From Tubulanus polymorphus (Eukaryota > Animalia > Nemertea), in the NCBI RefSeq assembly GCF_964204645.1, contig NC_134032.1, positions 434,001 through 498,000 of the forward strand: a DNA stretch of 64,000 nucleotides, given 5' to 3'. The notes below the pieces were generated by a model that searched no databases, was not told the origin of the DNA, and saw only the letters and a list, made by a program, of their open reading frames with translations. The translations under genes and the position numbers were made by a program. Positions 13,014 to 48,800 of the stretch are shown piece by piece (within the stretch, counting starts at the first letter, position 1; each line of letters starts with the position of its first letter).

Positions 13014-13949
13014 TTAGAAGCGGATCAAATTGCGCAATTCGTTTCTGATTACTTTTCCCGTCATCAGATACAAGTAGAGATTCAGCGAATAGTTCACCGC
13101 TAGGATATCGTTGAGGACAGTGGAAATGTGATTTAATTCTAGATTTGTCCTGAGAAAAGGGCCGATGACGAACGTCGGGAACGTTGTAACCATGAAAAAA
13201 GCGCACAGTGACAGAACCAACACGGTTACCTGGTTTGAGTATTTCGATGCTAGGGTGGTTTCTGAGTTGCCATTTTTTCTGAATAAAATGATCGACGTCA
13301 TCGCGGACATGATGCCTAACAAAATAAACGGGCCCGCAGAGACAAGAATAGACGTTACCAAAGGCTTGACAAATGTGGGCACATTTTTAATGATACAACC
13401 GTTGTCACTAACATCGATAGTTACAAATGAATAACTAAAGCCCAGCGCTAGGAAGCAGATTACGGAGAAACAGAGTTTCGAGGCAGTATTCGGGCTCCAG
13501 AAACGAGGACCTCTAAACGGAAAACAAACGACGCACATTCGCTCGGTAGCTACGAGGACCAGCGTCCACGGACTGCACGAAAGGCACAACAATATAAAAT
13601 ACTCAAAAGATATACACTGAATTCGCGTTGACGGTTTGATCAGTAATTCTCCATAAAATGCATAAGATATAACGTTAATATATTTACTGAAATAGGCGCA
13701 GACTAAAGCTAAAGTGTCGCAGACGGCTAGTTGAACGAAAATACGACTGAAAGAACGTCGCCATAGTTTACGTCGCAGCATCACTATCACGATGAGCAGA
13801 TTACCGACGAATCCGAGAATTAAACAAAGACTGGCGAACACGAGGTAAAACCAGAGATAAGTTCCAGGCATCGTAGTTGCAGACAGTACGATCGCCGTGT
13901 AGATACCGGTGGGATTTGTGCGGTTCTGAGGAACTGAAGATGCAGCCAT
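13014..13949 (-). CDS. Intronless class A GPCR, 311 aa, FMRFamide-receptor-like/orphan peptide or chemosensory receptor
   Basis: Seven hydrophobic segments; TM1 GN, TM2 LAVCD, TM3 ERM, TM7 NYSLNLYLY; N-glycosylation site NRT; first in-frame ATG at 13949. Confidence 0.88.
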   Translation of the reverse strand: MAASSVPQNRTNPTGIYTAIVLSATTMPGTYLWFYLVFASLCLILGFVGNLLIVIVMLRRKLWRRSFSRIFVQLAVCDTLALVCAYFSKYINVISYAFYGELLIKPSTRIQCISFEYFILLCLSCSPWTLVLVATERMCVVCFPFRGPRFWSPNTASKLCFSVICFLALGFSYSFVTIDVSDNGCIIKNVPTFVKPLVTSILVSAGPFILLGIMSAMTSIILFRKNGNSETTLASKYSNQVTVLVLSLCAFFMVTTFPTFVIGPFLRTNLELNHISTVLNDILAVNYSLNLYLYLMTGKVIRNELRNLIRF

Positions 13950-14249
13950 CGCGTCGCCGACCAATCAGACTTCACTCTCAATTACAGCTCACTTATCATT
14001 GAAACTATATTGAAAGCTAAATAGATTTTATAAACGTCTGCGCCTTCTTCTTGCTTTCGTTCGTAAATTCAAATGACCTTCAATTATAACCAACGTTGAG
14101 CATGTATAAAGACAGCTTCGATAGTCAAAGCATCGCTTGTTCTAATATTTCCAAATTCAGAAAAGTCCCCTCTGCATTGCAGTGCTCTAGGGGATGAATT
14201 GCAATATCTAATTTGTATTTCTTAAACATAGTTAGAAAATATGTATTAC

Positions 14250-15090
14250 GCGGTCAAGTCATGTGTTAAGCTTAACCCTAACACGGCGCAATATTTTGCG
14301 GCTGATAGAGGGTTAAGGCAAGGTGAAAATTGTTCACCTATTCTATTCTATTCTATTTCCTTATTTTGAAACGATATCGAAGACGGATATTCTAGCGCGC
14401 GGTAAACCATCTTACGTAGTCGTTTATCGGAAAAACTAAATTTGAAATGTGATTCAGAACTTGGGACTTTACTTGATGTATGCATTATCCTTTACTCGGA
14501 TGAGACGGAAGATGAACAAGAAAACTAACTTAAAAGTTTATTGACGCCTTGAAAACTAACACGTTGCTTTATACTGCCGACGTTTAAAAAAGATGATATT
14601 AATTACACGTGTATATGATATCAGGGATAACTAAAGTAATTTTAGATTTGAACATATCAATAATTGAATTAAATTGACCGGCAACCAGTCTAAAGAAGAT
14701 ATTGATGACGTAGCACACATCCTCACAAAAATAATCATCAAAATTATGCAAAAATAAGAGTCATGAAAATATCTAGTTACAAAATGCCACAATTCACAAT
14801 TTTGAAACGCCAGTGATGACGTTAAGCACATTGACTCCATACAGAACCCTTCAAATAACGCATACTAGGTATCAATGTATATAAACATTAATTGTAACGG
14901 TTTTTTACGGCGTCAGATACGTTTAGACATACTATTTGAATATCACAATGGCGGTGAATGGTGATAAAACTAAAATATGAGTCTTCGCTTGAATAAATAG
15001 TTGGATAAGACAAATTTCGAAATTTATGTTTGGTAACTAGGAGATAGAGCTAGTCGAGGATTATGTGTACCTCGGAGTAAAAATTATCTG
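14250..15090 (+). mobile_element. Degenerate LINE reverse transcriptase remnant
   Basis: GLRQGENCSPILF (RT motif), YSDE (YADD-like) and VEDYVYLGV, with frameshifts and stops. Confidence 0.7.
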
Positions 15091-15109
15091 AAATGATAGT
15101 TTCGCTAAA

Positions 15110-16128
15110 GCAAAATTAAAGGATAATTACTTAAGTCGAAATGATGTTTCACTGTTGTTAGGTCATTTGTTTTTATCCTTAAAATGTACGAATCTGTATT
15201 TAAAATCATCAATGGAAATCCACAATAAAATGTTCCATCTTCAGTTGATAAATCATAAACATAATCTGTTGCTCTTGGATTTGATATTTCAAAACAATCT
15301 CTCATTTCTTCTGTTCATCCTTTTTCAGTGTGGCTTAAATCATATTCTTTTGGTCTATTTTTTCTCAATCCTAATGATGAGCATGATATATTTAATCAAC
15401 TTTCACGCATTTTCCGTTTTGAACGAATCGAATTGTTTTATTTTTTGTGAATCGTTTTGTTCCATCAGCAGGGGAGCGTAGAATCCAATGAAATACAATT
15501 TTCTTAATTAATTATGGTGCATTTAATACATAATCTGGAATTAATTATCATTTCTCTTTTTTATCTATAATTGATTCCATCAATATAAAATTCATTACTG
15601 TAGCAAACTCTTTAGGTTTCAAAACATTTTAAGAAATAACATAACTACTTCACGATATTTCTAAATTTTTTAAGTTTTAAATCTTGATTACATAAACACC
15701 ACCAAAAAGAGTAGAACTAACTACTAATAACTATCTGCTGAGCCATCTCCGGCGAAAAATCCTTTAAAGAAATATTCTTTTACTTCTAATGTTTCAGGTT
15801 CTATGTTATAGATATTTCCATGTAAAATTAATTTCAAATAGATTAAGTTCTTGAAACTGTTTTTTAAATAGCTTAAATTTTTTTTGATGTTTTAGTGATT
15901 AAAGATGTCCATTATGATTCCATTTTGTTATAAATTCATCACAGACTTCACACTGAATTTCATCTCTTTTTATATTGTTTCATTGTTCTTGTCCTTCATT
16001 GGGAATTTCTGGAGCTTCAAATCTATAACATTCTGTTTGTGTTTTATAGATTTTTCATGTTGAGATTTATTTATTATACTGATATATCTTTAACAATACG
16101 CGCAACGATATTCATTTTTATCATCCAT
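15110..16128 (-). pseudogene. Polinton/Maverick-type family B DNA polymerase remnant with LAGLIDADG intein (copy 1)
   Basis: Minus strand: Zn-finger-like start (MDDKNEYRCAYC...HEKSIKH; CEVC...GHL*SLKH), LAGLIDADG motif FKGFFAGDGS (15762-15742), WCLCNQDL, IPDYVLNAP...YFIGFYA..ADG, intein C-terminus DYVYDLSTEDGTFYCGFPLMILN, then extein TDSYILRIKTNDL...FDLSNYP. Confidence 0.8.
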
Positions 16129-16505
16129 TTTTTTGATTGGTTCTCACTGCCTCCCATTTATAAAGAATACAAATTATCTGTGCGGGCTATTGCGGGCGAG
16201 TCAGCCTCTCTTCCTCTGGCTTGAAACCCTGATTTTGCAATTACTCATCGATGACAATCAAACTGAGGACATTTATTATCTTAACGTTTAATCAAATGGA
16301 AGCCGTTTGGCAGTCAAAATGAGGACTAGAAACCATTTTGATAATCAACCGTCAAACTGAGAACATATATTATCTGGAAGTTCCATAAGAGAAACCTTTA
16401 TGACAATCAACAGTCGAACCCAGGACAAACACGTATACAAGTATGCTTTACAAAATAATTACCTTCACCGATAATTGTAGCAGATTCCCGATCCTTTCTA
16501 GGGTC

Positions 16506-16767
<262 letters not shown>

Positions 16768-17425
16768 GAACGTTTCTCAATCACCGCTGCTGTGACGTTT
16801 ACTAGAATGAAAAAAGGTCTGAGGATGATTTTTAGTTAGAAATTCCGATAAGAAATACATTTGTGAGAACTTAACTCTGTCTGTGGTCTGTTATTAGAAA
16901 GTCAACTGTTCTAACTCTGCCTCGTTTCTAGTGAAAGGGCTGCGTGGGTGGGGGTTATAAGAAAGAATTACTCAGTTATTCTAATGTACACCACTATTGA
17001 AATTTTGAGATGCTACCAATGAGTTATTTGAAAATCAGTTCATGTTTTAGATTTTCCGAGCAAAATTAGCAATACTTGATATTGTTTGGAAAATGTAGTG
17101 CTTAGCTTTCATAAACCACGACAGAAGAAAATACCGATACACCGGTATCGATATCTTTCCAAGCGACTTTAACGTCGAATAACCTGGAGCCGCAGTCGGG
17201 AATTCGATAAGTCATAAAAATAATGCCGTAGGGAAAGGATTTTAATTGGAAAATATGATATGCATGTATACCGCGGTCGTCATCGCTGTAGTGAGGAATC
17301 CACAACAAACTCCATCTTCAATTATGTGACTGCATACCAGCATCGAATTTGCTTATTTGATGTATTGCGGCTGCAAGTATAGATATCTTCACCAAAGAAC
17401 TTTCACGGTTGTGATGGTACTTGCT

Positions 17426-20400
17426 ATGAAGCAGCGACTGAAAGTGCTGTTTATAGCGTCGCTGATCGTTTGTCAAGTTCGCATCGCACGCGCTGATCGC
17501 TCCGACTCTATCGAGGAATCATCTGTGACGGTCAGTTCGTCTTGTAACAACACGTGGTACTCCGTCGATTCTTCGTCCGGTTACATCATTTCACCGAATT
17601 ATCCGTCGTTAACGCGCGGTGTTGAATGTCGTTGGTTCGTCAACAGCTCTTCACCGGGAACTTTTCGCGTCCAAGTTTACTACAATATTGAGACGTCAAT
17701 ATTCTGTAGTGATAATTATCTCCTCGTACACGAGTCTGATACCAGAATCTGCGGTGACGGAATGCATGACATTCACCGTAACAATTCGATCTCGTTGATG
17801 TTTAGGAGTAAAGTCGATGGTCCACGAGGTAGTCGCGTTTATATCGTGTATCGTATGAATCGGAATCAGTTGAGAATCAGTCATCGCTGCAGGAACTGGA
17901 GTTTCAAAGTGAATGAATTAAAAACACCAAGCGGATACAAATTCTCGATGTACCTTCATCACCAATGCCAATTATTCATGGAATGGGACGCCCTACCGCA
18001 TGGTTTAGGAATGAATTTGACCTTCGTTGATACGGAGCTAAACATAATACCTGGCGCTAACGTCGATCCAGCGACGAGTTTTCGAATCTATGATAGCTGG
18101 AACACCAGCATTGAACCGATAGCGTTTATAGGCGCACAACGCGGACAGCAGCCGTCATCGTTTTATACCAAAACAAACAAAGCCGCGATTGCTGCGTCAA
18201 ATCAACTTATGACAACGACAAAACTTTTAGTCCAGATGTACAAAATATCCGATTGGAACGTCACTAATCCGTTGATTCAGATCTCTGACAACGAATCGGG
18301 AGTGCTCATTCCCGATGACAACAGTTTACACGTAGTAACTCGATCAAAACACTTACACTGCTGGTCTATCACAGTGCAGGTGTTACAGTACGTCGTATTC
18401 AACTGGACACGTGATCTCAGCACATCCAGTGACGTCATCGGTGTATATAAGCTAGAAGGGTTACGCGTTGTAGGAACTGGTATTTTACTCGGTTACAACT
18501 ACCTGGAATCGCTGAGTATCAAATCCGACGGCTTTCTCGTTATACTGTGCGTTCTAACGAAGCCCGATATCGCAGAATCGAGTTTAACCATACATTTCAG
18601 TAAAAAATCGCTTTCGATGTCACAACTCCGCATCAAGGTGGGAAGGGTAGGTGTCGAAATCATGTAAATGTTATCGCCTTCAAATTCTCGAGAAAAATAG
18701 TGCGTACTTAAGATATTATACCATAAAATAAGTTTCTATTGATCTTATTCTTATCCATTTTAGATAGATCGCATGTTGGGGACGCAGAAACTGCGGTCTT
18801 CTTCGCTATTTCCATTTCAATCTACACGTAAGATGTTGGAATATCGTATTGTCAAGTATGATTTCGAATGGAAAGTTGAGATTTTTGAAAGTGAACTGGA
18901 ATTAAAGGTGCTGTCTGTGAATTGTGAGAATGCTGGATTTTACATATATGACGGTGGTTATTTCACAGCCACACGCTACGGTCCGTATTGTCCCAGTGCG
19001 TCACTTTTTCATTATCGACGAAGTATTGTCAGTCTGATTACATCAGGTGGCCCGGTTATGGTAGTAGCATATATCTACAACTACCAGGGCAAGAGCTTGG
19101 TAAGTTATGAGGCTAGTTTGAAGTTACGTCCATCTGACTGCGACGGTTACATCCTTCTGGAAAAAGGAGAAAACCAGTTAACAGTGACGTCACACGGTGT
19201 CATGATTACACCTAAAAATCGGTGGCTCGCGTTACATAACTTATATATAATATCGACGAACGCATATGAAATAAGCTCTTGTTCGCCTGATCATATGCCA
19301 AAAGACAGACGATGCCATACTTACATATCGCTCAGCAGGCAGCGTCTTAATAACAGTCTCGTACTGCACACTGTGACATTTGGGAAGGCGTATTTGTTCT
19401 GGAGATACCCGTATATTATTGAACTGCGGAGTGTCTGTCAAACATTGAAAAAATATAACTGGCCAATTGACTGGACCAGGCGAAATGAAGACTGTGGAAT
19501 CATTCAGTCACCGAACTATCCAGGAAAAACTGATACGTCACGTGTTGTATTAACATACGATTTGGCTTTCCGAAAGAACAGGACACGAATTCAGTATTAT
19601 AGATTTATTGTAAAACATGTAGAAATAACGCCATGCATCAAGCGATCCCGACAAGATTTAGACTCGGTTTTATTCGTCCAGTTAGTAAATCGAGACAACT
19701 CTAAATTTGGTAGACACGAAATCAAACTATGCGAATCGTACGGACCGGGAGTAGTATTTTACAGCTTAATAGAACACGAACTGTGGATTGAGGTGAAAAA
19801 CAGAACACCTAAATTCCGTATACAATACACTTTGGAAAAGCAGTTAGTGAAAAAACTGCGCGATGATGTGTGTAAACCAGGATTTTTAGATTCAGGATAT
19901 TCCTGCGTAAAATACATCAGAGATGAACGTCTGAATTGGGAAAATGCTGAATTGTACTGTAGACAGAAGTACGCGGGACATCTTCTCAGCATCAACTCAG
20001 AACGGGATATGTACAATATCAAGACGTTATTTGCTATACGTCCTTTGATCTCACAGGCATATTCACAGAATGCGCTCATAATGATGATTGGACTGAAATT
20101 ACAGGTATTTTCCAGAACTAAAAACAATCCCCTTTCTGAAAATCTGTTTTCATCGTATCTTTTGTATCTCATTTTCAGCAAAATAATAGCTATTACATGT
20201 GGACTGATGGAAAACCTTTGAGTTATACAGAGTGGTACAAACCAACAGATAACGACACAATTCCTGAAGTTATTCGAGGATTGATATCCCCTTTAAGAAA
20301 ACAACCGATAAATGACGTCAATGTGCGGTGTACGGCGATGATACTGAATAATCCACGAGGATCAGCGAACTGGGTTCGATTCCCTTGCGGAGTAAAAGAG

Positions 20401-23400
20401 GTCCATACGAGTTTCATTTGTGAAACAGAAAGACATGGCATCGAAATGAAGGCGGAATTGAATTCAACTATGAGCTCAGGTGAAAATACCACCATCGATT
20501 TGAAATATGGAATTAACAGCACATTTGAGATGCGACCAAGTTTACTCGAGACGACTGGTTTCAATATCACCGGCTGTACGTTCGGTTGGATTAGCATAGA
20601 TAAACAATGCTATCAAATACTGACAGACTGGAATAATCATCGGGGTTTAGATAAAAATACTGCGATAGAAATGTGTCGAAAAATCCGTGGTGAAATTGGA
20701 ATGCTAACGAGTTATACAGAAAAAGAAACTATGAACCTAATGAGACAATTTCACTATCAACATCAATACGGTTCTATACTAACGATGACTTCTAATGACA
20801 GACTGCACGTTATAAGCCCAATAATAACTAGAGATAGAATAACTTATATTCAATCACTTAAATGGACGATAAAAAATTTCGATAAATTGGCTGATACTGT
20901 ACATTCAGTTTTGTGTTCCTACAATGTAACCGACCAAGAGTTAGTTTCTATAAGCCGATGTAAACCGTGGCAGTTCATATGTAACGATCAAAGATGCATC
21001 AGCGACCATCGCGTATGTGATACCAGACACGACTGTCAACACGGTGAAGATGAACTCAATTGTACGGATATCAGTTTACACAGTCAGTTCCGCTGCAACG
21101 ATGGACAGGTGATATCAATAAGTGGTTTCTGTGATTTCATCCTGGAGTGTGAGGATGGTTCTGATGAGAATTCGTGTTTCCATCCTACGTGCTTGTCCGA
21201 ACAATTTCACTGCGATAGTGGTCAGTGTATAAGTATGTCGAATAGATGTGACGGAGTCAATCATTGTAAAGACGGCTCTGACGAAGTAGAATGCACCGCT
21301 GAACTGTGTCAGGGTTTCCTGTGTAACAGTGGAGACTGTATCAGTTCTCAGTTGTATCAGGATGGTGTCGTGGATTGCACCGGAAGTCTAGAAGAGGATG
21401 AATCAGTAACAACTACCAATGTAACGCTGAATCCTACGTTTCAGTGCAATACTGAAAACTACTGCACGACTAACTTCACAAACTTGTGCGCGGAATCTGA
21501 TGAACAAAGATGTTCTTTCCATTCTCCTCATTGTTATTCAAGACGTCACAGATGTATTCTAGAAAGAATGACGGATGGTTACCCAGTTTGTAGAAATCTT
21601 GAGCACGTGTTGAGATGTGAAGAATTTCAATGTCCAGCTGGTACTGCAAAATGTCCAGCATCGTACTGTATACCGATCAGACAGGTGTGCGATGGTCAAA
21701 CAGACTGTCCCAATTCAGAAGATGAGTTAAACTGCGAGACATTTTCATGCCCAGGAATGTTTAAATGCGGCCACGAAAATCGATGTATTCCACAGTCTGA
21801 CGTGTGCGACGGTGTTGTAGATTGTAAAAATACCACTGACGACGAGGCTTTCTGTAACGTTACGTGTCCTGAAAATTGTACATGTCAAGGACATTTGATT
21901 GAATGCCACAATTCACGGTTATCAGATATCAGTGAAATCTTCCCAGCATCAGCACGAGTTTTAATTTTGTCAAGTAATCAAATCATCTTTGATGTCTTCT
22001 CATTTTGCAAATACTTTTATCTTCGTATTCTCAACATCTCCTCCAACGAGTTACCTTTTCTTTTGCCAAACTCGTTCTCAAACCTACATAATCTACACTC
22101 ATTAGACCTAACATATAATAACATAACATCATTATCCACAGAAACATTCACCGGTTTATATAGTTTGAAACAGTTATTCATAACTGAAAATCCACTTCGC
22201 GATATAGAGGACGATACCTTCCAAGATTTGAAATCTCTCAGAGTTCTCGATCTCCACGGACTTTCCTTATTGGTGCTTGGTAGAAATGTATTTCAAGGTT
22301 TATCTGCATTGCAGTCGTTGAATATCAGCAGTAACAGAATACATCATATTTCACGATATGCTTTTTCTGGATTAACTACTCTTGAAACACTTGATATAAC
22401 CAATAATTATGAAGTCATATCTGTCGAGAAGAATGTTTTTGACAATCTGACAGCGTTGGTCTTTCTAACGTCTGATGCTTATAAATTTTGCTGCATGGCC
22501 CCGAATGTTGACAAGTGCCTTCCTGAAGCTGATCAATTTTCCTCGTGTTCTGATCTGATGGGTAACACGGCCCTCAGAGCTATCATCTGGGTGATCGCTT
22601 CATTCAGTTTTTTCGCTAACGGAATTGTAATTTCTCTTCGTATTCAAGCGATTCGATTCTCGCTAAATCCATCCTCAGACATCATCATCATCAATGTTGC
22701 TGTGTGTGATTTTATGATGTCTATATATTTGTTTCTGATCGCTGGAGCCGATTACATTTACAAAGGCATTTACTTTCTCAACTCAGAATCATGGACGGAC
22801 AGTTTGTTTTGCCGTCTTGCTGGGATCGTGGTGTGTATTTCGTGTGAAGGCTCATTGACATTTTTACTAATCATGACGCGTCATAGATTTTCAAATATCG
22901 TTAATCCATTTTCTGGAAGCAAGATGACATCTCCGAGATATGTGTCAATCGTTTGCTGTTTATGTTGGATTTTCTTGAGTGTCGTGGCATTACTACCCCT
23001 TTTTCCTATATCTTACTTTGGAAGGAATTTTTACGGTGCTACCGGAGTTTGTTTACCGTTGAATTTGATTTCAATTGATGTCCACGCCTGGCAATATTCA
23101 TTGGTTATTTTTTCTCTGTCTAATTCTCTCATACTTGCTACGATAATGACGACATACGCTCAAATGTACCGACTCGTATCCGGAAGCAGGGCTGGATCGG
23201 GTAGAGCTGATCCTACTGAACTGGTTTTGGCACGCAGGAGTTTGGTGATAAATCTGTGTAATTTATTTTGCTGGCTGCCGTTAATTATCGTTCAGTTCTG
23301 CGCGGTATTACGAGTCGAAATACCGAATCAGGTGGCGGCTTGGCTGGCGGTTCTTTTCTTGCCGATCAACTCGTCCCTCAATCCCCTACTTTACACTATA

Positions 23401-23463
23401 CTGACTATTGATATGAAATCCATACGTGCAAAGACAAAACGCAGGCAACATAAGAGAAAATAA
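17426..23463 (+). CDS. GRL101-like LDLa-LRR GPCR with CUB and C-type lectin ectodomains, ~1950 aa; exons 17426-18646, 18764-20104, 20179-23463
   Basis: Signal peptide; CUB motifs (GYIISPNYP, GIIQSPNYP); CTL (WENAELYC..HLLSI..IGL|..WTDG) spanning a phase-0 intron; multiple LDLa repeats (CDxxxDCxDGSDE); LRRNT and LRRs; hinge YKFCC...FSSCSDL; 7TM ending LPINSSLNPLLY. Both introns GT-AG, phase 0. Confidence 0.9.
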
Positions 23464-25620: not shown

Positions 25621-25649
25621 GAAGAGGGATGGGCACGGACTAGAAGAGA

Positions 25650-26367
25650 GTGGGTCTCCCACCCGTCAGGAGACACCGTTCAGACTGGAAGAGTGGGTCT
25701 CACACCCGTCAGGAGACACCGTTCAGACTGGAAGAGTGGGTCTCACACCCGTCAGGAGACACCGTTCAGACTGGAAGAGTGGGTCTCCCACCCGTCAGGA
25801 GACACCGTTCAGACTAGAAGAGTGGGTATCCCACCCGTCAGGAGACACCGTTCAGACTGGAAGAGTGGATCTCCCACCCGTCAAGAGACACCGTTCAGAC
25901 TGGAAGAGTGGGTCTCCCACCCGTCAGGAGACACCGTTCAGACTGGAAGAGTGGGTCTCACACCCGTCAGGAGATACCGTTCAGACTGGAAGAGTGGGTC
26001 TCCCACTCGTCAGGAGACACCGTTCAGACAGGAAGAGTGGGTCTCCCACCCGTCAGGAGACCCCGTTCAGACTGGAAGAGTGGGTCTCACACACGTCAGG
26101 AGACACCGTTCAGACTGGAAGAGTGGGTCTCCCACCCGTCGGGAGATACCGTTCAGACTGGAAGAGTGGACCTCACACCCGTCAAGAGACACCGTTCAGA
26201 CTGGAAGAGTGGGTCTCCCACCCGTCAGGAGACACCGTTCAGACTGGAAGAGTGGGTCTCACACCCGTCAGGAGACACCGTCCAGACTGGAAGAGTGGAT
26301 CTCACACCCGTCAGGAGACACCGTTCAGACTGGAAGAGTGGATCTCCCACCCGTCAGGAGATACCGC
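25650..26367. repeat. 43-bp minisatellite, ~17 copies
   Basis: Unit GTGGGTCTCCCACCCGTCAGGAGACACCGTTCAGACTGGAAGA with period 43 (25650, 25693, 25736...). Confidence 0.97.
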
Positions 26368-26522: not shown

Positions 26523-28982
26523 ATGGCGTCCAACTCTACATACAGATTCGAGCTCGCAGTTTCTTATCGTGGTCGCAAGATCGGTGTTTGGTCGGATCAC
26601 GACAACGACTACAGAACGATACAGAATTATTACTTTCAACCGTTGTTCGATTTAGAATGTGATCTGATCGCTACTGCTGGTGATCAATTACAACTACCGA
26701 TACAGATGTGGACAGAAGAATTAGAGACTATTATCGAAGTAAAACTGAAAGCGATCTATACGGAACAAGTTATAAATGTACAAATGATGCCGTTTGACGA
26801 GGTAAACATCGTTCAGACCCCGATAGAAATATCTGATTTCTGTATTTAAATGTTTAATTAATCGTTGACCCCGATATGATGAATTCGAAGGTCGAGAATC
26901 CAGCAACAAATTAGTCTCACAAAAACATTTTTCATTATGTACTTTGATCATGAAATGTACTTCATGAAATACTAAAAGTAATTCTGCATTTGGATGACAC
27001 TGTATTATCGACAGGTCTACTAGCTAGGTATAACTGTGACTCCGCGATGTGAGAGTAAAATAACGTTCTTTCAATTTCAGGTGAAATTGCAATGGAGAGA
27101 AGCGCCCCCTGGTGTAGAGATACCGAATCATCATATCGGGTTTAATCACTGTCCAGCGATTCATGTGTTTATCGTTAAATGCTCAGACGATGAATCAGCG
27201 CAAAACTTAAAAACACATCTTCAACAAGTCCCGCATTCATTAGTGTCGGGGCTTCATGTGATCGCTTCAAACCAGGCATCTGCACATAATTTGTATAAAG
27301 TAAATTCAGTAGGTGTGCCGATCAGTGAAACCCGAACAGTTCGACCAGACATTGATGAACGACATAGTTCTTTTATAGAACATGTCAGACAGTTTCACGA
27401 TAATCTAGAAAATCAATTCTGTCAATTGAAACACACTATAGAAACAGTTGAAGAGAGGCTGAACCGGTGCTGTACTGAGCAACAACCTGAAGAGAGGCTG
27501 AACCGGTTCTGTACTGAGCAACAACTTGAAGAGAGGCTGAACCGGTGCTGCACTGAACAACAACTTGAAGAGAGGCTGAACCGGTGCTGCACTGAACAAC
27601 AACTTGAAGAGAGGCTGAACCGGTTCTGTACTGAGCAACAACTTGAAGAGAGGCTGAACCGGTTCTGCACTGAACAACAACTTGAAGAGAGGCTGAACCG
27701 GTTCTGCACTGAACAACAACTTGAAGAGAAGCTGAACCGGTTCTGCACTGAACAACAACTTGAAGAGAAACTGAACCGGTGCTGCACTGAACAACAACTT
27801 GAAGAGAGGCTGAACCGGTTCTGCACTGAACAACAACTTGAAGAGAGGCTGAACCGGTTCTGCACTGAACAACAACTTGAAGAGAGGCTGAACCGGTTCT
27901 GTACTGAACAACAACTTGAAGAGAGGCTGAACCGGTTCTGTACTGAACAACAACTTAAAGAGAGGCTGACCAAAATTACTGATGATGTCATAGGGAGAAT
28001 TAATAAATTGGAGAGATGTAGTGGTGACGTCAAAGGGCGAATAGATAATCTGGAGGGATGTATCGATGACGTCACGCGGCTACGTGTAGGAATAATCGAT
28101 TCATTGACGTTCAATAAACGGGTAGATACAGATTTCAGACCCCACCTGATGACGTCAGTACCCGGTGAACACGTGGGTGAACAGTCACGTGTTATATGTG
28201 CGCAGTGGTGCTCGACTGGTTCTATATATAGTATGAATGATGATAATATACAGAGATACATAGAGATTGATGGTGAGATACAAGGACTCGCTGCTGATAG
28301 TGACGGGTTTCTGTTTGTGCTCGTGGGGGGAAACAGTGAATTCATCCTGAGAAAATATAAAAATCAGAGAAAACTCTTCGAAGAAAATATCACTGATCTC
28401 CTGCCTGGAGTCTGTGTATCCTTAGTGATCCGTGATCACATTATCTATATACAGACAAGAGATAGAGACGTTCATGTTTTACGTTTAATAGAAATCCCTG
28501 CTGAAAACAGATTGATCGATAGATGCCGAGTGAAGAAATATCAGCTCCCGGATGGAGAGTACAAACATATCAACTGTTTCGATGTCGATTCAAAGGGACA
28601 CATGTTCCTCTACTGTTCGCATACACGCAGATTATTGTATCTAACACCAGAAGCGGAACTGATAAGTTTTATCAATATGAAGGATTTCGGACTTACATTT
28701 GATCCACTTGCAGGATACCCGTGTGTTATTAATGATGATCGTATATTACTATCGGTAAACTCTAATACTGGTAACAGAGCTGCTGTTATCAGTATCAGAT
28801 ATAATGATCAGGGGTTTATAGATCACCCGCGTATAATACTGAACTCTACAGACAGTTGGACATGTGACATACATCCCGTGTTTGACAGTGACACTGTAGT
28901 TATCCGACACCGTGATAACAGTAGTAATCAGTATTCATTGAGATTCTACAGTATAAACACTGTATTGACTCCCCCGATTTAG
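26523..28982 (+). CDS. Uncharacterised protein, 726 aa (paralog A): N-terminal domain, 13-aa tandem repeat, C-terminal beta-propeller-like region; exons 26523-26801, 27081-28982
   Basis: GT-AG phase-0 intron (FDE|VKL) in the same position as in the paralog at 45.3 kb; strong similarity between the two proteins at both ends. Confidence 0.8.
27452..27969 (+). repeat. Coding 39-bp tandem repeat (EERLNR[F/C]CTEQQL) x ~13
   Basis: Directly visible in the DNA and in the 648-aa ORF. Confidence 0.95.
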
Positions 28983-31862: not shown

Positions 31863-32194
31863 CCTGATAGATGACGCATATGCATAGGGCTACATAGGCT
31901 AGTAGCCTCTACGAGGCAAAGGCTAAGTTCACTGTAAAAGAGGAATTAGATTTATTAAAATGCATGTTAATTAGTGATTAAATGGTTCTGACTTGCAACG
32001 ATCAATCACAATTATCAATTTTATTCACTCTCAATTACAGCTCACTTATTATTGAAAAGATTTCATAAACGTCTGCGCCTTCTTCTTGCTTTCGTTCGTA
32101 AATTCAAATGACCTTCAATTATACCCAACGTTGAGCATGTATAAAGGCAACTTCGATATTCAATAATATTTCCAAATTCAGAAAATGAATAAAT

Positions 32195-33225
32195 GAAGTT
32201 TCAGTGTATTAAAATCTGTTGTAAGGTCATTTGTTTTTTTTTATCTTTAAAATGTACGAATCTGTATTTAAAATCATCAAAGGAAATCCACAATAAAATG
32301 TTCCATCTTCAGTTGATAAATCATAAACATAATCTGTTGCTCTTGGATTTGATATTTCAAAACTATCTCTCATTTCTTTTGTTAATCCTTTCTCAGTGTG
32401 GCTTAAATCATATTCTTTTGGTCTATTTTTTCTCAATCCTAATGATGAGCATGATATATTTAATCAACTTTCACGCATTTTCCGTTTTGAATGAATCGAA
32501 TTGTTTTATTTTTGTGAATCGTTTTGTTCCATCAGCAGGGGAGCGTAGAATCCAATGAAATACAATTTTCTTAATTAATTATGGTGCATTTAATACATAA
32601 TCTGGAATTAATTATCATTTCTCTTTTTTATCTATAATTGATTCCATCAATATAAAATTCATTACTGTAGCACACTCTTTAGGTTTCAAAACATTTTAAG
32701 AAATAACATAACTACTTCACGATATTTCTAAATTTTTTAAGTTTTTAAATCTTGATTACATAAACACCACCAAAAAGAGTAGAACTAACATATTAATAAC
32801 TATCTGCTGAGCCTTCTTCAATGAAAAATTCTTTAATAGAATATTTTTGTTCTAATGTTTCAGTTTCTATGTTATAGATATTTTCAATTATTTCATCAAA
32901 TGATTCATTCTTGGAAAAAAACTTTTATGTTATAATTCATCTTTAGTTTTTATGTCAGTTTTATGTTAGTTTTTATGTCAGTTTTATGTTAGTTTTTATG
33001 TCAGTTGTATTTCATCACCTTTTTTTTCTACTTAAACTTATGATCTTCCGTAAGATCAACAAATCCTTATTCAGTTCTAACCCTATATATTTCTTATTTG
33101 TCTAATTATATTATTTGATTTTTAAAATCCATTTCTTGTCCAAACATCCATTAATCCATTAATTTGTATAAATTCTTTTTCACCATATGAAATATTCTGA
33201 AATTCATCGACTAGTTCTTTGAATA
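32195..33225 (-). pseudogene. Polinton-type PolB remnant with intein (copy 2; retains the intein N-terminal splicing region)
   Basis: DVWTRNGF*K...IYRVRTE*GFVDLTEDH (block B TxxH at 33051-33040), decayed LAGLIDADG blocks, DYVYDLSTEDGTFYCGFPLMILN|TDSYILKIK (junction 32266/32265). Confidence 0.8.
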
Positions 33226-33362
33226 GCAGCGCATCAAGCTTTTGATACTTCGTGTATCCCAACCAGGAAAATCAATGACGAAAAAAAGACAAACTGATTT
33301 ATTCGCACGTTCATTTATTCATCTGAATCGTCGAAATATAAACTGATCTTAGATTGAACAGA

Positions 33363-34091
33363 TCAAAATTTGGCGCAACAAGTTGTTGGGTTATACCATT
33401 TTTTGTGGGCACATTTCCAGTATCCATTTCTGCAACCAACCACAATGAAACGCACGCCTTTTTTGCCTGAACTGCACGTACACGAGATGTACCGCCTTTG
33501 TATATCCTGCGACAATTCTGAATGATAGGAATCAGTATCTTTATGAACTATTGTATTAATAGTATTATCATTATTACGGAGACAATTATCACTAAGCATT
33601 GCTGGCCGACCAAGAGATAAGGCGTTTTTATTTAAGCAACTCGTATCAAATCGCTTTGCTCCGTCGATTACTGTCACGTGGTACAAATCGAATCGCCTTA
33701 AATAAATGACCCTACTCTCCACAACCGGAATCTGAATTTTCTGCGATTGAAAAAGCCGCCATTTTGTTTTTGATATATCGCCGAACGCTACAAAGACGTA
33801 GCAAATCGAATCAAAGCGCTTCGATTTGGTCGCGTTGGCGATTTGCTTAAATAAATGGACGATTCGATCCGTGTTGATTCGAGTTGCTTAAATATAAACG
33901 CCTATAGTTTTTCAGTCGAGCTGAATTTATATATGGGAGTTGAAATAATGGTAATTTTCATTATTCAATTATTTTAACTCACGAGAATCTGAATAAGATC
34001 TAATTCGCTTCTTACCTTCGGTGGAAACCACTCCCGAAATGACTAACGCGACTGCGACAACCAAAATAAAGATCTGCAAAATGGTCAACAT
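33363..34091 (-). CDS. Secreted 76-aa prepropeptide; mature 42-aa six-Cys cationic defensin/anemone-toxin-like peptide; exons 34091-34016, 33517-33363
   Basis: Signal MLTILQIFILVVAVALVISGVVS, acidic propeptide ending in RR, mature YISCTCSSGKKGVRFIVVGCRNGYWKCAHKKWYNPTTCCAKF. Phase-1 GT-AG intron, TATAAAA at ~34264-34258, AATAAA at ~33319-33314. Confidence 0.82.
33620..33903. mobile_element. MITE in the intron of the peptide gene
   Basis: TIR aggcgttt.tatttaagcaactcg...cgagttgcttaaatataaacgcct. Confidence 0.75.
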
Positions 34092-42800: not shown

Positions 42801-45800
42801 AACGCTCTCCCGGTCGACGACGACGACTGTCTGAAAGCGTTGTTCCTGCCACCGTCAGCTGCCAGCTTACCGAAATTACCTTTCATATCTACAAACGAAA
42901 TGATTATAATCAATTATCTAACCAACATCCAGGGGCTGCAGTTACTAAAAAGTTGGTTTAACCCTTTCAGTGCGTCTACACCGCAGTGCGGTTTATAAAT
43001 CAGTGATCAATCTTCCCTAACCAGTTTCTTCAATTTCCACCCTCATATTTTTTCAATTTTTAACCTTATGAAAATTCGTGGCCTAAAATAGATTTCCTCA
43101 ATTCACTGCTATTTCCCGTATTCAAGGCCTATGAATGTGCTGAAGAGAAAATAGCCTGACGATGTAACATTTTTCATTGAATCGAGTATTGATAAACTAA
43201 AGAAACAAGCGGTCGATAGCATTATCCACAATTCCCTGAACTTTCCAGGTTTTTTTTTTTTGGTAAATAAAATTCATCGAGTCTCCTGAAGTTTTCCCTG
43301 ATTTTTCTGATTGCCTGAGTTGACCAGGAGACTGGCCACCCTGCGTAAAGACTGAATGCACCACTTCGATAACTCACTCTGTTGGCGTTTGTTGATATTC
43401 GCTTGTCTTTTCTTAATGTCTTCCAATTTCTTTTTGCGAAATTCGGCCAAAACTTTCTTTTTCCTGAAAATATCATCAATCATCGGATGTATGAATGACC
43501 GAAACATAGAGCATGATTAAAAATCCATAGATGATCAAACAATGCGTAGCTTGCGTGCAATTATGATAAGAAAATTCGGAACTCTGTTCTAAGCCTCAAA
43601 TTTACAATTGATTGTGGCTATATCATCCAACTGTGAAGCAGCTCAAATGAGAGAGGAATTTGACTTTTAAAATAGCTGTTTAATTGAAAGTGAAATCAGA
43701 TATTCTGATTCATTCACTTTCTTCCCCTTTACAAATATCCTGGGCCCGGTTTAATAGACTGGTATTATCTTTAACTCGGGGGTTAACTCAATTGAAAATG
43801 AATTGAGTTAGCCTCCGGGTTCAAGTTAATACCAGTCTATAAAACCGGGCCCTGAATTTTCCACGTGATTACACAAAATTCTCTGAGAATCAGAGAGAAA
43901 TTTCTAGGTTTTAAAATGTTACAATTCATTGATTTTTCATTGAATCACATACTAATAAAGGAACACGCGGTCAATAGCATCATCCAAGTTCCGCGAGTTT
44001 TACAAGTCTTTGGCAAAATTAGTCAAGTTCCCCGAGTTTTTCTAGAATTTTTCAGATTCCCCGAGATTTCCAGGTTTCTGGCAAGATTTGTTAAATTCCC
44101 TGGCCAGGGCCAGTTGCACAGACCTGGCTTAAGTGCAAAAGTGGTCTTAAATCTTAAGACTGATCTTAAGTCATTAGATTAGCTACAGAACTAAGTCGAT
44201 CTTAGACCGGTCTTAAGTCTAAGCCGTCACTATGCAACCGGCTCCAGAGTTTTCCATGAGTTTTCCGGGTCAGTGGCGCCACCATGTATGGAAATGATTT
44301 TTCAAACCGTCTCGTACCTGTTGACCTCTTCGATTTTTTTCTCCAACTCGGCTGTTTTCTTCTTATTTTTGATCAGACTGTATCGAAGGTCGCCCTCTTT
44401 CAGAGCTAGAGTTTTATCGGACGCTTCTCGGTGCTGTACTTTCCTATAAACGTGAAACACATAAACATGAAACACAATTCGAACCTAGGATAAGAGTAGT
44501 AGTAGCTCAGACATGTAGAGAATAGGATAATAAGATTAAAACCCACACATTTATCCCTTTCAGTGCGTCTACACCGCAGTGCGGTGTATGAATCGGTGAT
44601 GGATTTTGCTAGTACACCGCACTGCAGTGTATTGATTTAATTAGTAATTACTAATTATTTCTATTGAAAGATGGCAGCACCTTTCAAACATAGTGAAATA
44701 CTAGTAACTAATGATACACTGCACCGCGGTGTAGACGCACTATAGTGGTATTCCCGTTATTCAACACACTAGGGTGGAATTTTTCAGAATTTTCAAATTA
44801 TCTTCAGCACTATAGGGTATTAATTAGTCAGCACTGAAAGGGTTAAGAGATAAATAAATTCTACTTGTCAAGAATTGAATGAATTTGTTTTCCATTAGAT
44901 AAATTGAAATCATGTACATGTAATTTAAAGTCGCTCAATTTGTATAGCCAATAGGCTCAGCGTACAGCTGGCCTAAAAATGGCCTAAGCTTGGACATATA
45001 TCTGGTCAACCGGCGGCATTAGAGTACAACTATCTGCTGAACAAAGTCTATTTGTTAAAACTATCATTGAGATCGACCTCGACAAAAATCAACTTCACAC
45101 GAAATCAATCACAAAAAAAAAATCTCGTAAAAAATCCTTTATCACTTTTATCATTTCGAAATACTGATTAGTCATTGACGCACAAACAACGGTTTCTTAT
45201 CTCCGGGTCTTCGTCACATAGCGCATGACATTATCACATAACTGTTATACGTGATATAAAACTTATACGCCCGAGTTCTTAGTTCTATGTAGTTACTTAT
45301 TGACGAGCAAACATGGCGGGTAGTAGCGTTAGCTGCGAGTATAGATCAGAATTCACTGTTACGTTTGAAAGACGCAAAGTAAACGTTTATTCAGATGAGG
45401 AGAATGAAAGTAGAGATATCGCTAATTATTCCTATCAACCGTTATTCAAACTAGAATGTGATCTGATAACTGTTGACGGTGATCTATTACAATTGCCAGT
45501 AACGATATGGACAGAGGAACTGGAGACCTTGATTAAACGAGAACTTTTTGAAAGACAACAAATAACCGAAGAACAAATATCCGTACAAGTGATAACGTTC
45601 GATGAGGTAAGAATCATTTTCATCTTCAGTTTCATCATCATCACCCACGCACGATACTAGACGGGTGACCGCTGCGAGGTGAGAGTCAAATACAAAATGT
45701 TGTTTTCAATTTCAGGTGAAATTAGAATGGCGAGCAGCGCCCCCCGGTGTTGAGATACCGGATCTCGGCATCCCGTTCAACCATCAACCACAAACCCACG

Positions 45801-48800
45801 GATTCATCGTTAAGTGTTCGAATGGAGAAATGGCCGAAAACTATAAATCAAGCCTTCAAAAGTCTCCACAATTTATAGGAGCAGGACTTCATGTGATCGG
45901 TATTAGTCGACGAGGGACGCAATCGTTTAAAGTTAACTATACAGAACCGATCACTGAACATCAGACTGGTACAGAGCTGATGGAACCTGAGGATGAACAT
46001 CCCACTGGTACAGAGCTGATGGAACCTGAGGATGAACATCCGACTGGTACAGAGGATGATGTTATTGTTTCATTAATGATCAATAAACAGGTAGATACGG
46101 ACTTCAGTCCCACCCTGGTGACGTCACTACCTGTTGAGCAGGCGGGTCGACAGTCACGTATAATATGTGCGCGCTATAAATTCGCTGATTATATATATAG
46201 TATGAATGAGGATAATGAGATGGAGAGATACATAGAGTTTGACTGTGATGAGATACAAGGACTCGATACTGATAGTAACGGGTATCTGTTTGCGCTCGTG
46301 AAGAAAAACAGCAAATTCTACCTGAGAAAATATAAAGATACAATAAAACTGTTAGAAGAAGACATCACCGATATCCGGTCTGGAGTCTGTAGAACCCTAA
46401 TACTCCGTGATCACAAAATCTATGTACAGTCAAAGAGAGACGTTCATGTTTTACGTTTATTAGAAAACCCTGTAAACAGTTTGATTGATAGAAACCGAGT
46501 GAAGAAGTATCAGCTCCCGGGTGGAGAGTACAAATATATCAACTGTTTAGATGTGGACTCACGGGAACGCATGTTTGCCTACTGTATGCATACACGTAGA
46601 TTATTGTATCTGACAGCAGAAGCAAAGCTGATAAGTTTTATCTATTTGAAGGATTTCGGACTAACATTTGATCCACTTGTGGGACGCGTGTGCCTGATCA
46701 GTGATAAACATGTATTACTATCGGTATACTCTAATACTGATAACAGAGGTGCTGTTATCAGTATCAGATATAATGATGAGGGGTTTATAGATCCCCCCGG
46801 ACGTATAGTAATGAACTCAATGCACAGTTTGGTATGTGAGATGCATAAAGTGTGTGACAGTAACACTGTAGTTATTTGTCACTATGATAACAGTTATAAA
46901 CAGGACTCACTTAGAGTTTATAATATAAACACTGGACTAGCTCAGTAACTAGTTGCCGCATGATAAACAGAACTTGTTGATAGTTTACAAAACTCTGCAC
47001 CAACAGTGTTATTCAACGTGTATCTATACTATATTTCTCTAATGCGTATTTTACTGAACATCTCACGTTTGCCATGGGTCTCGTCGGGGTGTATAACTTA
47101 TCCATTAAATGCAACATATCTATAAGAATGCATTGTGAAGGGTTTTTTATACGAAAAACATCAGTGGGACCAGAAATTTGGGGTTTTGTACAAGCCAATC
47201 AACTGGCTACGTAGACGCGACAAGTGTGAACAACAGTAGCAGCAGCAGTAGCAGCAGCAGCGCTACACACACACACTCACGCAAGAGCACTGCAGCAGGC
47301 TTCTAAAAATAAACTGGGTCACTACTGCTGTTACCAACACCGTGAACTGAAACTCAAGAGGTGTCATGAGATGCAGGCTTCAATTACCCAACGGTCCATC
47401 CCGATTGCTAACGCAATTTCATTGCCATACGTTTATTGTTATTTAGATAAGATAACTCTTTCTGTTTTTTCATTATAGAATACATAGCCTATAATATTGT
47501 AATTACTGCATTCTTAGTATTCCATTTTTCTATCTACCCGTCCATTGGGTGTGTATTTGGCTAGTTGCTGTATAAGTCTACTCTTTTATTGAAAACAAAT
47601 TTATTCAATTTGCGATAAATAGAATTCATTCTTCATCAAATTGCACAGGGATGAAAATGTTTGCGGGAGGTTGGATGGCGGGATAGTTACCTATCGTCCG
47701 ATGGAGTCCGACTCCTCCGGGAATCACGATCCGATGATTCGGACGACGAACGACCTCTACTCCGACCACGACCTTTACTCCCGCCGCCGCGACTTCGATG
47801 AAAGTCGCTGTCGTACGAGGCCGACCGGCGTTTGTCGCGTTTCCGCGACAACGACCGGCGGCGTCTGCTGTCGCTACGGCTACGACTGTCGCGTTGAGGT
47901 TTCTTGCCGACCGGACTACGACTGGCGCTGTTCTTCACGCGCGCGGCGGCCGCGGTCTCGCGTTGTTTGTTACGTCGCTCCCGTTCGATGCGATCGTCTG
48001 TCGCTCCGACCTCTTCCAACTCGATCCCGGAGAATCGAGAGATTCTTTGTCTGAATGAGAAAAATGTCAATTATCAATAATATGAGTTTAGCTAGAGACA
48101 CAATGGTTAAATTGTGAAGTTATGCGCTGATTCAGATTACTCTTATAACGTGGCCACTAATATATTTGTTAACGAGAGAGAAATCTCACAATAACGAAGC
48201 CAAGATTGAAAAATTCTATATCAGAATGGTTGTATTTGAGGAGCGACGTTTCGGCTAACAACTGTTAGCCATCATCAGGCGTACTGATGATGGCTAACAG
48301 TTGTTACGCCTGATGATGGCTAACAGTTGTTAGCCGAAACGTCGCTCCTCAAATACAACCATTCTGATATAGAATTTTTCAATCTTGGCTTCGTTATTGT
48401 GGGATTTCTGTCATTATCATCATACACGGATATTGTCGTCTTGACTGCAAGTTATTTTCCTAGACACGATCTGCTAAGAATCCAATCAATAAACGCGATC
48501 AAATACATAAAACACAGATGGAAACTGTTTGATTAGATCTAGCAAATCTTAACAAATTTCACCGACTTATCCCTATTTTTAGCTTTCTTTTTAAAGAAAG
48601 GAAAATTCATCGAGTTTTCCCTGGTTTCCAGGTAAGTGGCGCCACCCTGTTTTAGAAACAATAAGCATGCGCCTTGAAGCTGTCTTGACCACACTGTCTT
48701 ATGTCTTTAAACAGCAATCAGATCAATGAACTCATGGATTGGCTAGTTTGCTACTAGCAAAGTGCACCATGATGCAGTGCACTAGCAAAGTCCCATCACC

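Follow-up and report, generated by a model that had tools for sequence, protein, structure and literature searches.

A decayed LAGLIDADG intein in a Polinton-type DNA polymerase fragment on a nemertean chromosome

Introduction

The closest described relatives of the intein reported here reside in the family B DNA polymerases (PolBs) of Nucleocytoviricota (Mimiviridae, Phycodnaviridae, and others). They occupy the same site in the catalytic motif, YxD/S...N/TDS (slashes mark junctions), carry two LAGLIDADG motifs, and are of the same size (~340-360 residues). Archaeal PolB inteins, such as PI-PkoII and the split Pol intein of Nanoarchaeum, share the Hint and LAGLIDADG fold, and Nanoarchaeum NEQ528 ends in the same N/TDS context; they differ in being 11-18% identical in structural alignment and in having a cellular host. 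We take pol-c to be the allele name for the YxD/TDS site. In the portion of the review available to us, 67 viral DdDP inteins are tabulated (PMC5784728), and a title in its reference list records inteins in invertebrate iridoviruses.

Inteins have also reached nuclear genomes within viral PolB DNA: according to the accessible text of PMC10710043, nuclear scaffolds of algae and a labyrinthulid (Klebsormidium, Tetrabaena, and Hondaea) carry them inside viral-like DNA polymerases. The words "Polinton" and "Maverick" do not occur in the main text as available. In Polintons themselves, HNH and VSR nuclease inserts have been described in the polymerase pPolB2 (PMC10748475), in a main text whose accessible part does not use "intein", "Hint", "homing", or "LAGLIDADG"; PMC11161782, as far as its available text goes, suggests that those inserts are "intein invasions". 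Reviews, in the parts available, hold inteins to be absent from metazoan genomes (PMC8529194, PMC5784728). Hedgehog and other animal Hint-domain proteins do place a Hint fold in animal genomes but, according to the same partial text of PMC5784728, are not lodged, with an endonuclease, within a host protein and do not join two exteins.

Here we describe an intein whose carrier is a protein-primed Polinton-type polymerase (pPolB), scarcely alignable with the PolBs of Nucleocytoviricota and belonging to an integrating element, and whose host is an animal. Like the HNH and VSR inserts, as they appear in the available text, it puts a nuclease domain within a Polinton polymerase; unlike them, it has a full splicing domain, a LAGLIDADG nuclease, a site in the catalytic motif, and empty alleles. 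The term "intein" was not found in the accessible parts of PMC8502044 and PMC8097293. Across the literature covered, which also includes PMC12220804, PMC5718144, PMC3671162, PMC5871332, PMC10643990, and 10.1101/299784, each in its available portion, we found no splicing intein in a Polinton polymerase or an animal genome; subscription papers, Repbase notes, and supplements may differ.

Results

A broken intein ends at the catalytic site of a polymerase fragment

We analyzed a 64,000-nucleotide stretch of Tubulanus polymorphus DNA (the window) and confirmed a decayed LAGLIDADG intein (15120-15858, minus strand) ending Asn/Thr-Asp-Ser in a Polinton-type pPolB. The parts of this fossil (copy 1, 15120-16128) are:

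16039-16128, minus: zinc finger 1, preceded by an ATG and probably the pPolB N-terminus; one internal stop
15887-15952, minus: zinc finger 2, CxxC...H...H, in a different frame from finger 1
15858-15887, minus: inferred internal deletion point; the alignment to the intact intein-bearing pPolB P0032 begins at its residue 1304, base 15858
15739-15768, minus: LAGLIDADG motif 1; 20/30 identical to P0032 1311-1340
15541-15515, minus: IPDYVLNAP, part of the LAGLIDADG motif 2 region
15455-15541, minus: region of LAGLIDADG motif 2, disrupted by stops and frameshifts; motif 2 itself (15495-15455) is split by a frameshift
15198-15266, minus: intein blocks F and G with the terminal Asn; C-terminal splicing region
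15120-15197, minus: C-extein, +1 Thr of TDS and 23 more residues, to FDLSNYP at 15120

A frameshift-aware alignment of copy 1 to P0032 gave 49.1% identity across 230 residues. The aligned piece contains 6 frameshifts and 9 stops, and the score was 360 as against 34-39 for four shuffles. A profile of 122 natural inteins matched copy 1 at E 1.1e-13 and a second copy, described below, at E 1e-20, with no further match below E 1 anywhere in the window. Raw frames gave no significant intein match to Pfam or NCBIfam, because the gene is in pieces; the best values were E 0.14 for LAGLIDADG_3, with motif 1 alone, and E 0.00094 for zf-U1, with finger 1. The Asn/Thr junction falls at 15198/15197, and a terminal Asn followed by Thr recurs in copy 2. 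The residue preceding the terminal Asn in copy 1 is not His, which is rare across the intein family too (12/131). The block F/G region is 63-67% identical to the ends of giant-virus-type PolB inteins (e.g., P0011) and can be aligned, at E 0.18, with NEQ528, a split-intein piece of Nanoarchaeum.

The original prediction, made from the sequence alone, had named LAGLIDADG motifs, a block F/G, an Asn/Thr junction, an extein, and fingers, and all of them lie on the minus strand where it put them. Its calls of an intein and of insertion at the PolB catalytic YxD/TDS site also hold. It had proposed a frameshift-aware translation and profile searches; the frameshift-aware alignment and the natural-intein profile bore it out, and the family searches of raw frames did not. 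What it had missed, besides the identity of the residue before the terminal Asn, is that in copy 1 the fingers abut the endonuclease, with almost no polymerase and no N-terminal splice junction. We infer that ~1,200 codons are gone, comprising the exonuclease, most of the palm, and the N-terminal splicing region of the intein. A contig of sequencing run X1 (see below) spans 15767-16450, across the deletion point. Since the N-terminal junction and these codons are absent, copy 1 is unable to splice.

The fingers had been said to fit a Polinton PolB. Finger 1 is identical to P0033 residues 1-34 at 12/34 positions (pairwise E 4e-4), and finger 2 weakly matches the N-terminus of P0032 (pairwise E 0.038). 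These matches to pPolB N-termini are weak, and the fingers could also come from another ORF.

Intact relatives encode a complete intein predicted to splice

A phmmer search of 1.84 billion proteins with the last 96 residues of the fossil returned 12 proteins with E of 0.001 or lower, the best at 1.5e-24 and 61% identity. Eleven have this intein end, and one is an unrelated repeat protein. Five of the eleven are PolBs of the RNA-primed type bearing the intein; the other six (P0007, P0008, P0009, P0010, P0013, and P0015) are fragments with pPolB-like exteins, which in three cases are shorter than 35 residues and were judged by eye. With the intein part of P0007 as query, 4/174 candidates were retained, three of which (P0032, P0033, and P0034) are pPolBs of full length that contain the whole intein. 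In all three, DNA_pol_B_2 and LAGLIDADG_3 are both above cut-off; Intein_splicing reaches E 4.5e-7, 2.3e-9, and 3e-6, respectively, with the gathering score passed by P0033 only. Two further intein-bearing pPolBs are P0142 and L001 (the latter with two stops). In two sets of matching loci, the 13 others of the first and the 6 of the second represent PolBs of the RNA-primed type or an intein in topoisomerase II, and 5/6 of the second set are named GVMAG. Other searches added no intein carrier: a word-based protein search with the fossil piece (0/55 candidates), viral-contig scans with single proteins (no matches), a phage search with the fossil piece (chance matches only), and the ESM Atlas with P0033, which gave only leads below 0.9 in eukaryotic pPolB clusters, none displaying an intein family.

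An N-terminal Ser is present in 125/125 full-length relatives, block B reads TEDH in 6/6 pPolB inteins tabulated, and both acidic LAGLIDADG motifs are kept in 6/6 full pPolB inteins tabulated; copy 1 keeps motif 1. TIGR01445 is above cut-off for P0033 and P0142 and just under it for P0032 and P0034. An alignment-based model of the intact P0033 intein, on which the Hint fold rests rather than on the fossil sequence, reached pLDDT 94.9; its best PDB matches are PI-PkoII (E 5.6e-17), TliVMA, PI-PfuI, and PI-SceI, and it superposes on I-DmoI with an rmsd of 2.4-2.8 over ~170 residues. A single-sequence fold of a giant-virus intein (pLDDT 32.6) was set aside.

By sequence, then, the intein sits at YxD/TDS of a pPolB in intact reading frames and in the fossil alike. 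Ser1, block B TEDH, the terminal Asn, and the +1 Thr, together with the modeled fold, point to standard splicing, which would be required, given that the catalytic motif is divided by the insert. The intein of the intact relatives is thus predicted to splice out of the polymerase.

The carriers fall into two types. An Endonuclease_7-like domain marks the P0032/P0033 type, which scores lower against PF03175 than P0034 does; we infer the class labels Beta/pPolB1 for the former and Alpha/pPolB2 for P0034. P0034 and P0013 represent this second, barely alignable pPolB type with the same intein. P0034 presumably carries a VSR-like motif as well, so that its polymerase may hold two nucleases, that motif and the intein. 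A related intein occupies a non-allelic site in a topoisomerase II gene (P0056, and L013:10001-11221, on the same contig as the GVMAG locus L018).

The intein family is shared with giant-virus polymerases

The inteins of pPolBs and of giant-virus-type PolBs, the Nucleocytoviricota among them, are 39-46% identical over ~345 residues, and their extein cores score only 36-82. The same holds within Polintons: the intein of P0034 is 44-49% identical to those of the other pPolB type, with extein scores of only 53-84. Because similar inteins sit in barely alignable exteins, vertical descent of the intein is unlikely. These identities and the trees below would imply at least one jump between an RNA-primed viral PolB and a pPolB, and at least one between the two distant pPolB types. 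Here "giant virus" is by name for P0083 (Mimiviridae sp. ChoanoV1, an example of a Nucleocytoviricota relative) and the GVMAG contigs; the others are so called by Pfam DNA_pol_B and similarity.

A FastTree of 133 rows, which leaves out eleven near-duplicates, protein-duplicating loci, and rows with no junction pattern found, put 14/14 pPolB-borne inteins in one clade (99). An IQ-TREE analysis (LG+G4) of 51 hand-picked rows likewise united 10/10 pPolB rows (100/99) and grouped the window copies with P0007 and P0032 (99/96); its bootstrap had not settled (0.949). Rooted on two topoisomerase-intein rows, this tree nests the pPolB clade among the other PolB inteins (100/99). It thereby favors a giant-virus donor of the Polinton intein, which we consider probable, with room for doubt. 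Consistent with such a source, 116 of the best 120 listed matches of an intein profile (1,550 proteins at E<=1e-10) carry DNA_pol_B, and the top named matches of the P0033 intein in BFVD are PolBs of a phycodnavirus, a pandoravirus, a marseillevirus, and a megavirus.

The intein could instead have come from elsewhere, the two groups being sisters from a third source, or have flowed from Polintons to giant viruses; we hold this to be the less likely reading, though by some way the strongest of the alternatives. An approximately unbiased (AU) test did not reject a tree that keeps the 39 RNA-primed-type PolB inteins together as sister to those of pPolBs (p 0.18), and the stem of the pPolB clade is long (0.41). 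On a different point, that the pPolB inteins form one clade, a second AU test did not reject a tree that splits them by polymerase type (p 0.32). Since the trees hold neither archaeal nor phage inteins, they leave a prokaryotic donor possible. Against such a source, 0/85 candidate stretches in prokaryote genomes were confirmed as relatives and phages yielded a single 23% match, and the nesting, the profile matches, and the structural matches all point to giant viruses. The original prediction had suggested a possible acquisition from a co-infecting giant virus. Kinship with giant-virus inteins stands, with the direction of transfer favored rather than proven; this element did not acquire its intein freshly, for the fossil's intein falls in a diverged clade that was by then established among Polinton polymerases.

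Intein-plus and intein-free alleles coexist

The cluster of P0033 has 136 members, of which 40 were read and 15 listed, on ENA contigs between 57 kb and 1.0 Mb in length. Such lengths greatly exceed that of a Polinton and suggest a gene integrated in a large genome. Among the 15 listed members, the intein is present in seven and missing from six; the remaining two leave the site uncovered. The exteins of the 13 informative members are 94-99.7% identical at the protein level, and an in-frame insert of 346-348 residues is precisely present or absent. Columns that separate the two classes are concentrated at the site, 9/10 lying within -6 to +44 of it (p 1.9e-9 if uniform). Within 10 residues either side, the intein-plus P0037 agrees with the distant carrier P0142 at 17/20 positions and with its intein-free sister P0048 at 12/20; far from the site the relation is reversed (374/377 with P0048, 253/341 with P0142). 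The near-site contrast is weaker with L001 (14/20 vs. 12/20).

This is the pattern that homing would be expected to leave: the endonuclease would cut empty alleles, and the intein would be copied in together with a short donor flank. On these allele patterns, which are indirect and at the protein level, we regard homing in the intein family as likely. Intein-free alleles P0042-P0049 differ at the site itself (YTD/CDS, YFD/TDA, and YGD/TDA), a variation that could reflect escape from the endonuclease.

We judge it improbable, on the other hand, that the Polinton intein is fixed baggage, with plus and minus alleles produced by ordinary inter-family recombination or loss. The comparison was confined to the protein level and took in 15 of the 136 members, and the intein-plus alleles could stem from one event. 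Yet the insert is present or absent exactly, flank differences are confined to the site, and the endonuclease motifs are intact. The intein-plus flanks are, moreover, nearer to those of distant carriers, whereas precise loss would leave intein-plus flanks without likeness to P0142.

Two decayed copies lie beside animal-type genes

The same intein recurs 17 kb away, together with a piece of host flank:

32216-33238, minus: copy 2 of the intein; block B kept; the extein ends after ~12 residues
33090-33040, minus: block B of copy 2, with TEDH at 33060-33040; deleted in copy 1
13971-14164, no strand assigned: duplicated host flank, an 80% match to 32024-32185 beside copy 2

Copy 2 aligns with P0032 at a score of 434 (frameshift-aware; 46.6% over 322 residues, 9 frameshifts, 15 stops), its four shuffles falling within 31-39. 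The cores of the two copies are identical at 626/644 bases and have breaks in common; the upstream parts differ, with fingers in copy 1 and intein block B in copy 2. No block A (N-terminal Ser/Cys) is recognizable in either copy, and no N-extein emerged when the window was searched with a pPolB profile, a match at 33593-33330 being too weak to accept (E 3.6). Both window copies are broken and incapable of splicing. From the window, an intein-bearing element would have inserted upstream of a GPCR gene and decayed; the decayed element would then have been duplicated locally with its flank, and different parts lost from each copy. Over LAGLIDADG motif 1 (15720-15860 vs. 32790-32930), inter-copy identity falls from 95-100% to 82-92%; the 5' part of copy 1 may derive from a different element, or the core may have been homogenized. 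A 50-base imperfect inverted repeat (78%) lies upstream of copy 2, at 33620-33669 and 33854-33903.

Animal-type genes flank the fossil:

13014-13949, minus: rhodopsin-family GPCR ORF, the neighboring host gene (7tm_1 E 5.5e-10)
17330-23463, plus: three long ORFs side by side, of which the third (1107 aa) has five LDLa, LRR, and 7TM

The LDLa-LRR-7TM receptor architecture is not known outside animals. The first two ORFs are CUB-like and lectin-like by eye, with no Pfam match at 0.001, and all three are possibly one large receptor gene.

The stretch is present in three runs (X1, X2, and X3) of one study, whose short contigs provide the read support; none spans from the GPCR gene to the intein or the whole stretch. 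X1 contigs tile 13554-15189 at depth 18-30 with one 10-base gap. The extein end and its flank are bridged by an X1 contig (14871-15189) and by one contig each of X2 and X3. A separate X1 contig joins the fingers to the endonuclease, another contig joins copy 2 to its flank, and an X1 contig over 15242-15542 reproduces the decay with one other letter and one gap. The intein fragment is, very probably, chromosomal in this animal. The prospect that it is contaminant or symbiont DNA misjoined into the animal assembly is slight: its GC content is low (27% in copy 1 and 26% in copy 2, against 40% in the window) and a single study holds the stretch, but breaks and host flank are common to two copies that lie 17 kb from each other, contigs bridge both copies to their flanks at a depth like that of neighboring DNA, and the run contigs reproduce the decay.

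At four places (32262-32365, 32522-32625, 32834-32937, and 33094-33197), short X1 contigs have summed depths in the thousands, with neighbors at 20-40, a sum that we do not take as copy number. They overlie the most conserved intein motifs, and some longer contigs are ~80% alike; a multi-copy, diverged family of the same intein may be present in the same runs.

Other features of the window include a triplet repeated perfectly 87 times immediately upstream of copy 1 (16507-16766), host repeats of high depth that separate the GPCR gene from the fossil (14447-14922), and a 43-base tandem repeat at 25647-26366 (16.7 copies, 93% matches). Paralogous plus-strand ORFs at 27024-28982 and 45683-46948, of no clear family, are 80% identical over 874 bases, and the former contains 13.4 copies of a 39-base coding repeat. 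Two minus-strand ORFs of more than 200 aa, 48879-49604 and 60662-61306, have no Pfam match at 0.001; the latter resembles a transporter exon by eye.

The extein is of the Polinton type

The polymerase left in the window amounts to only ~26 extein residues, and the 27 residues after TDS scored 85, 56, 47, 37, 37, and 33 against six pPolB exteins, compared with at most 29 (mean 20) against 117 others. The closest exteins are those of P0007 and P0032; P0032, P0033, and P0034 match PF03175. The C-extein of copy 1 is also the best window match of a pPolB profile (E 0.023). We consider it almost certain that the intein resides in a Polinton-type pPolB, as the original prediction had argued against cellular Pol delta. 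A cellular Pol delta and a Hedgehog-type Hint gene were both rejected on the LAGLIDADG insert and the extein scores. That the fragment is instead an endogenised giant-virus PolB, for which the intein end closely resembling giant-virus-type inteins, the precedent on algal and labyrinthulid nuclear scaffolds (PMC10710043, in its available text), and the brevity of the extein might speak, is most improbable in view of the extein scores, of the grouping of the fossil intein with P0007 and P0032, and of the long ORFs scanned in the window, which held no other giant-virus-like gene.

A search with an alignment of the fossil's pPolB type picked out nine viral contigs that carry intein-free relatives, 29-34% identical to P0048. 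Among the ORFs tested on these contigs, an rve integrase was found in 4/4 candidates, an A32 ATPase in 3/3, and a double-jelly-roll domain in 1/3. In the window, tblastn gave no match at E<=0.01 to ORFs of these Polinton-like contigs, so that remnants of integrase, ATPase, and capsid were not found, and no convincing terminal repeats surround either copy. Because these element genes and repeats are absent from the window, what survives is a Polinton-type gene fragment, not an element. The proposal of an intein inside a virus-like transposon holds for the type of gene, in a copy that is dead and internally deleted.

Discussion

We consider it highly likely, taken as a whole, that the locus is a dead pPolB fragment with a LAGLIDADG intein at YxD/TDS, whose intact relatives are predicted to splice and probably home and whose source was probably a giant virus. 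The novelty lies in where a familiar intein type is found: in a polymerase family new to it and, in fossil form, on an animal chromosome. The locus places true-intein sequence, albeit within a mobile element and as a dead copy, on an animal chromosome, where reviews, in their accessible parts, have none (PMC8529194, PMC5784728). Drug arguments rest on that absence of inteins from metazoans. The finding also extends inteins to protein-primed Polinton polymerases and gives substance, in the form of an actual splicing domain, to what is, in the available text of PMC11161782, a one-line speculation.

For an intein to home, donor and target must meet in one cell; its occurrence in both Polinton and giant-virus polymerases is therefore evidence on the debated cohabitation of Polintons and large DNA viruses. 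The natural pair of plus and minus alleles offers a ready system for studying homing between multi-copy elements in a eukaryotic nucleus.

The chances that intact, active copies exist in animals seem to us evenly balanced. More tentatively, and at slightly worse than even odds, we suggest that an active LAGLIDADG intein of giant-virus origin may persist in animal germ lines, spreading between chromosomal Polinton copies of invertebrates and crossing both polymerase classes. Animal Polintons and giant viruses would then replicate in the same cells, and the nuclease may be a weapon against intein-free polymerase genes.
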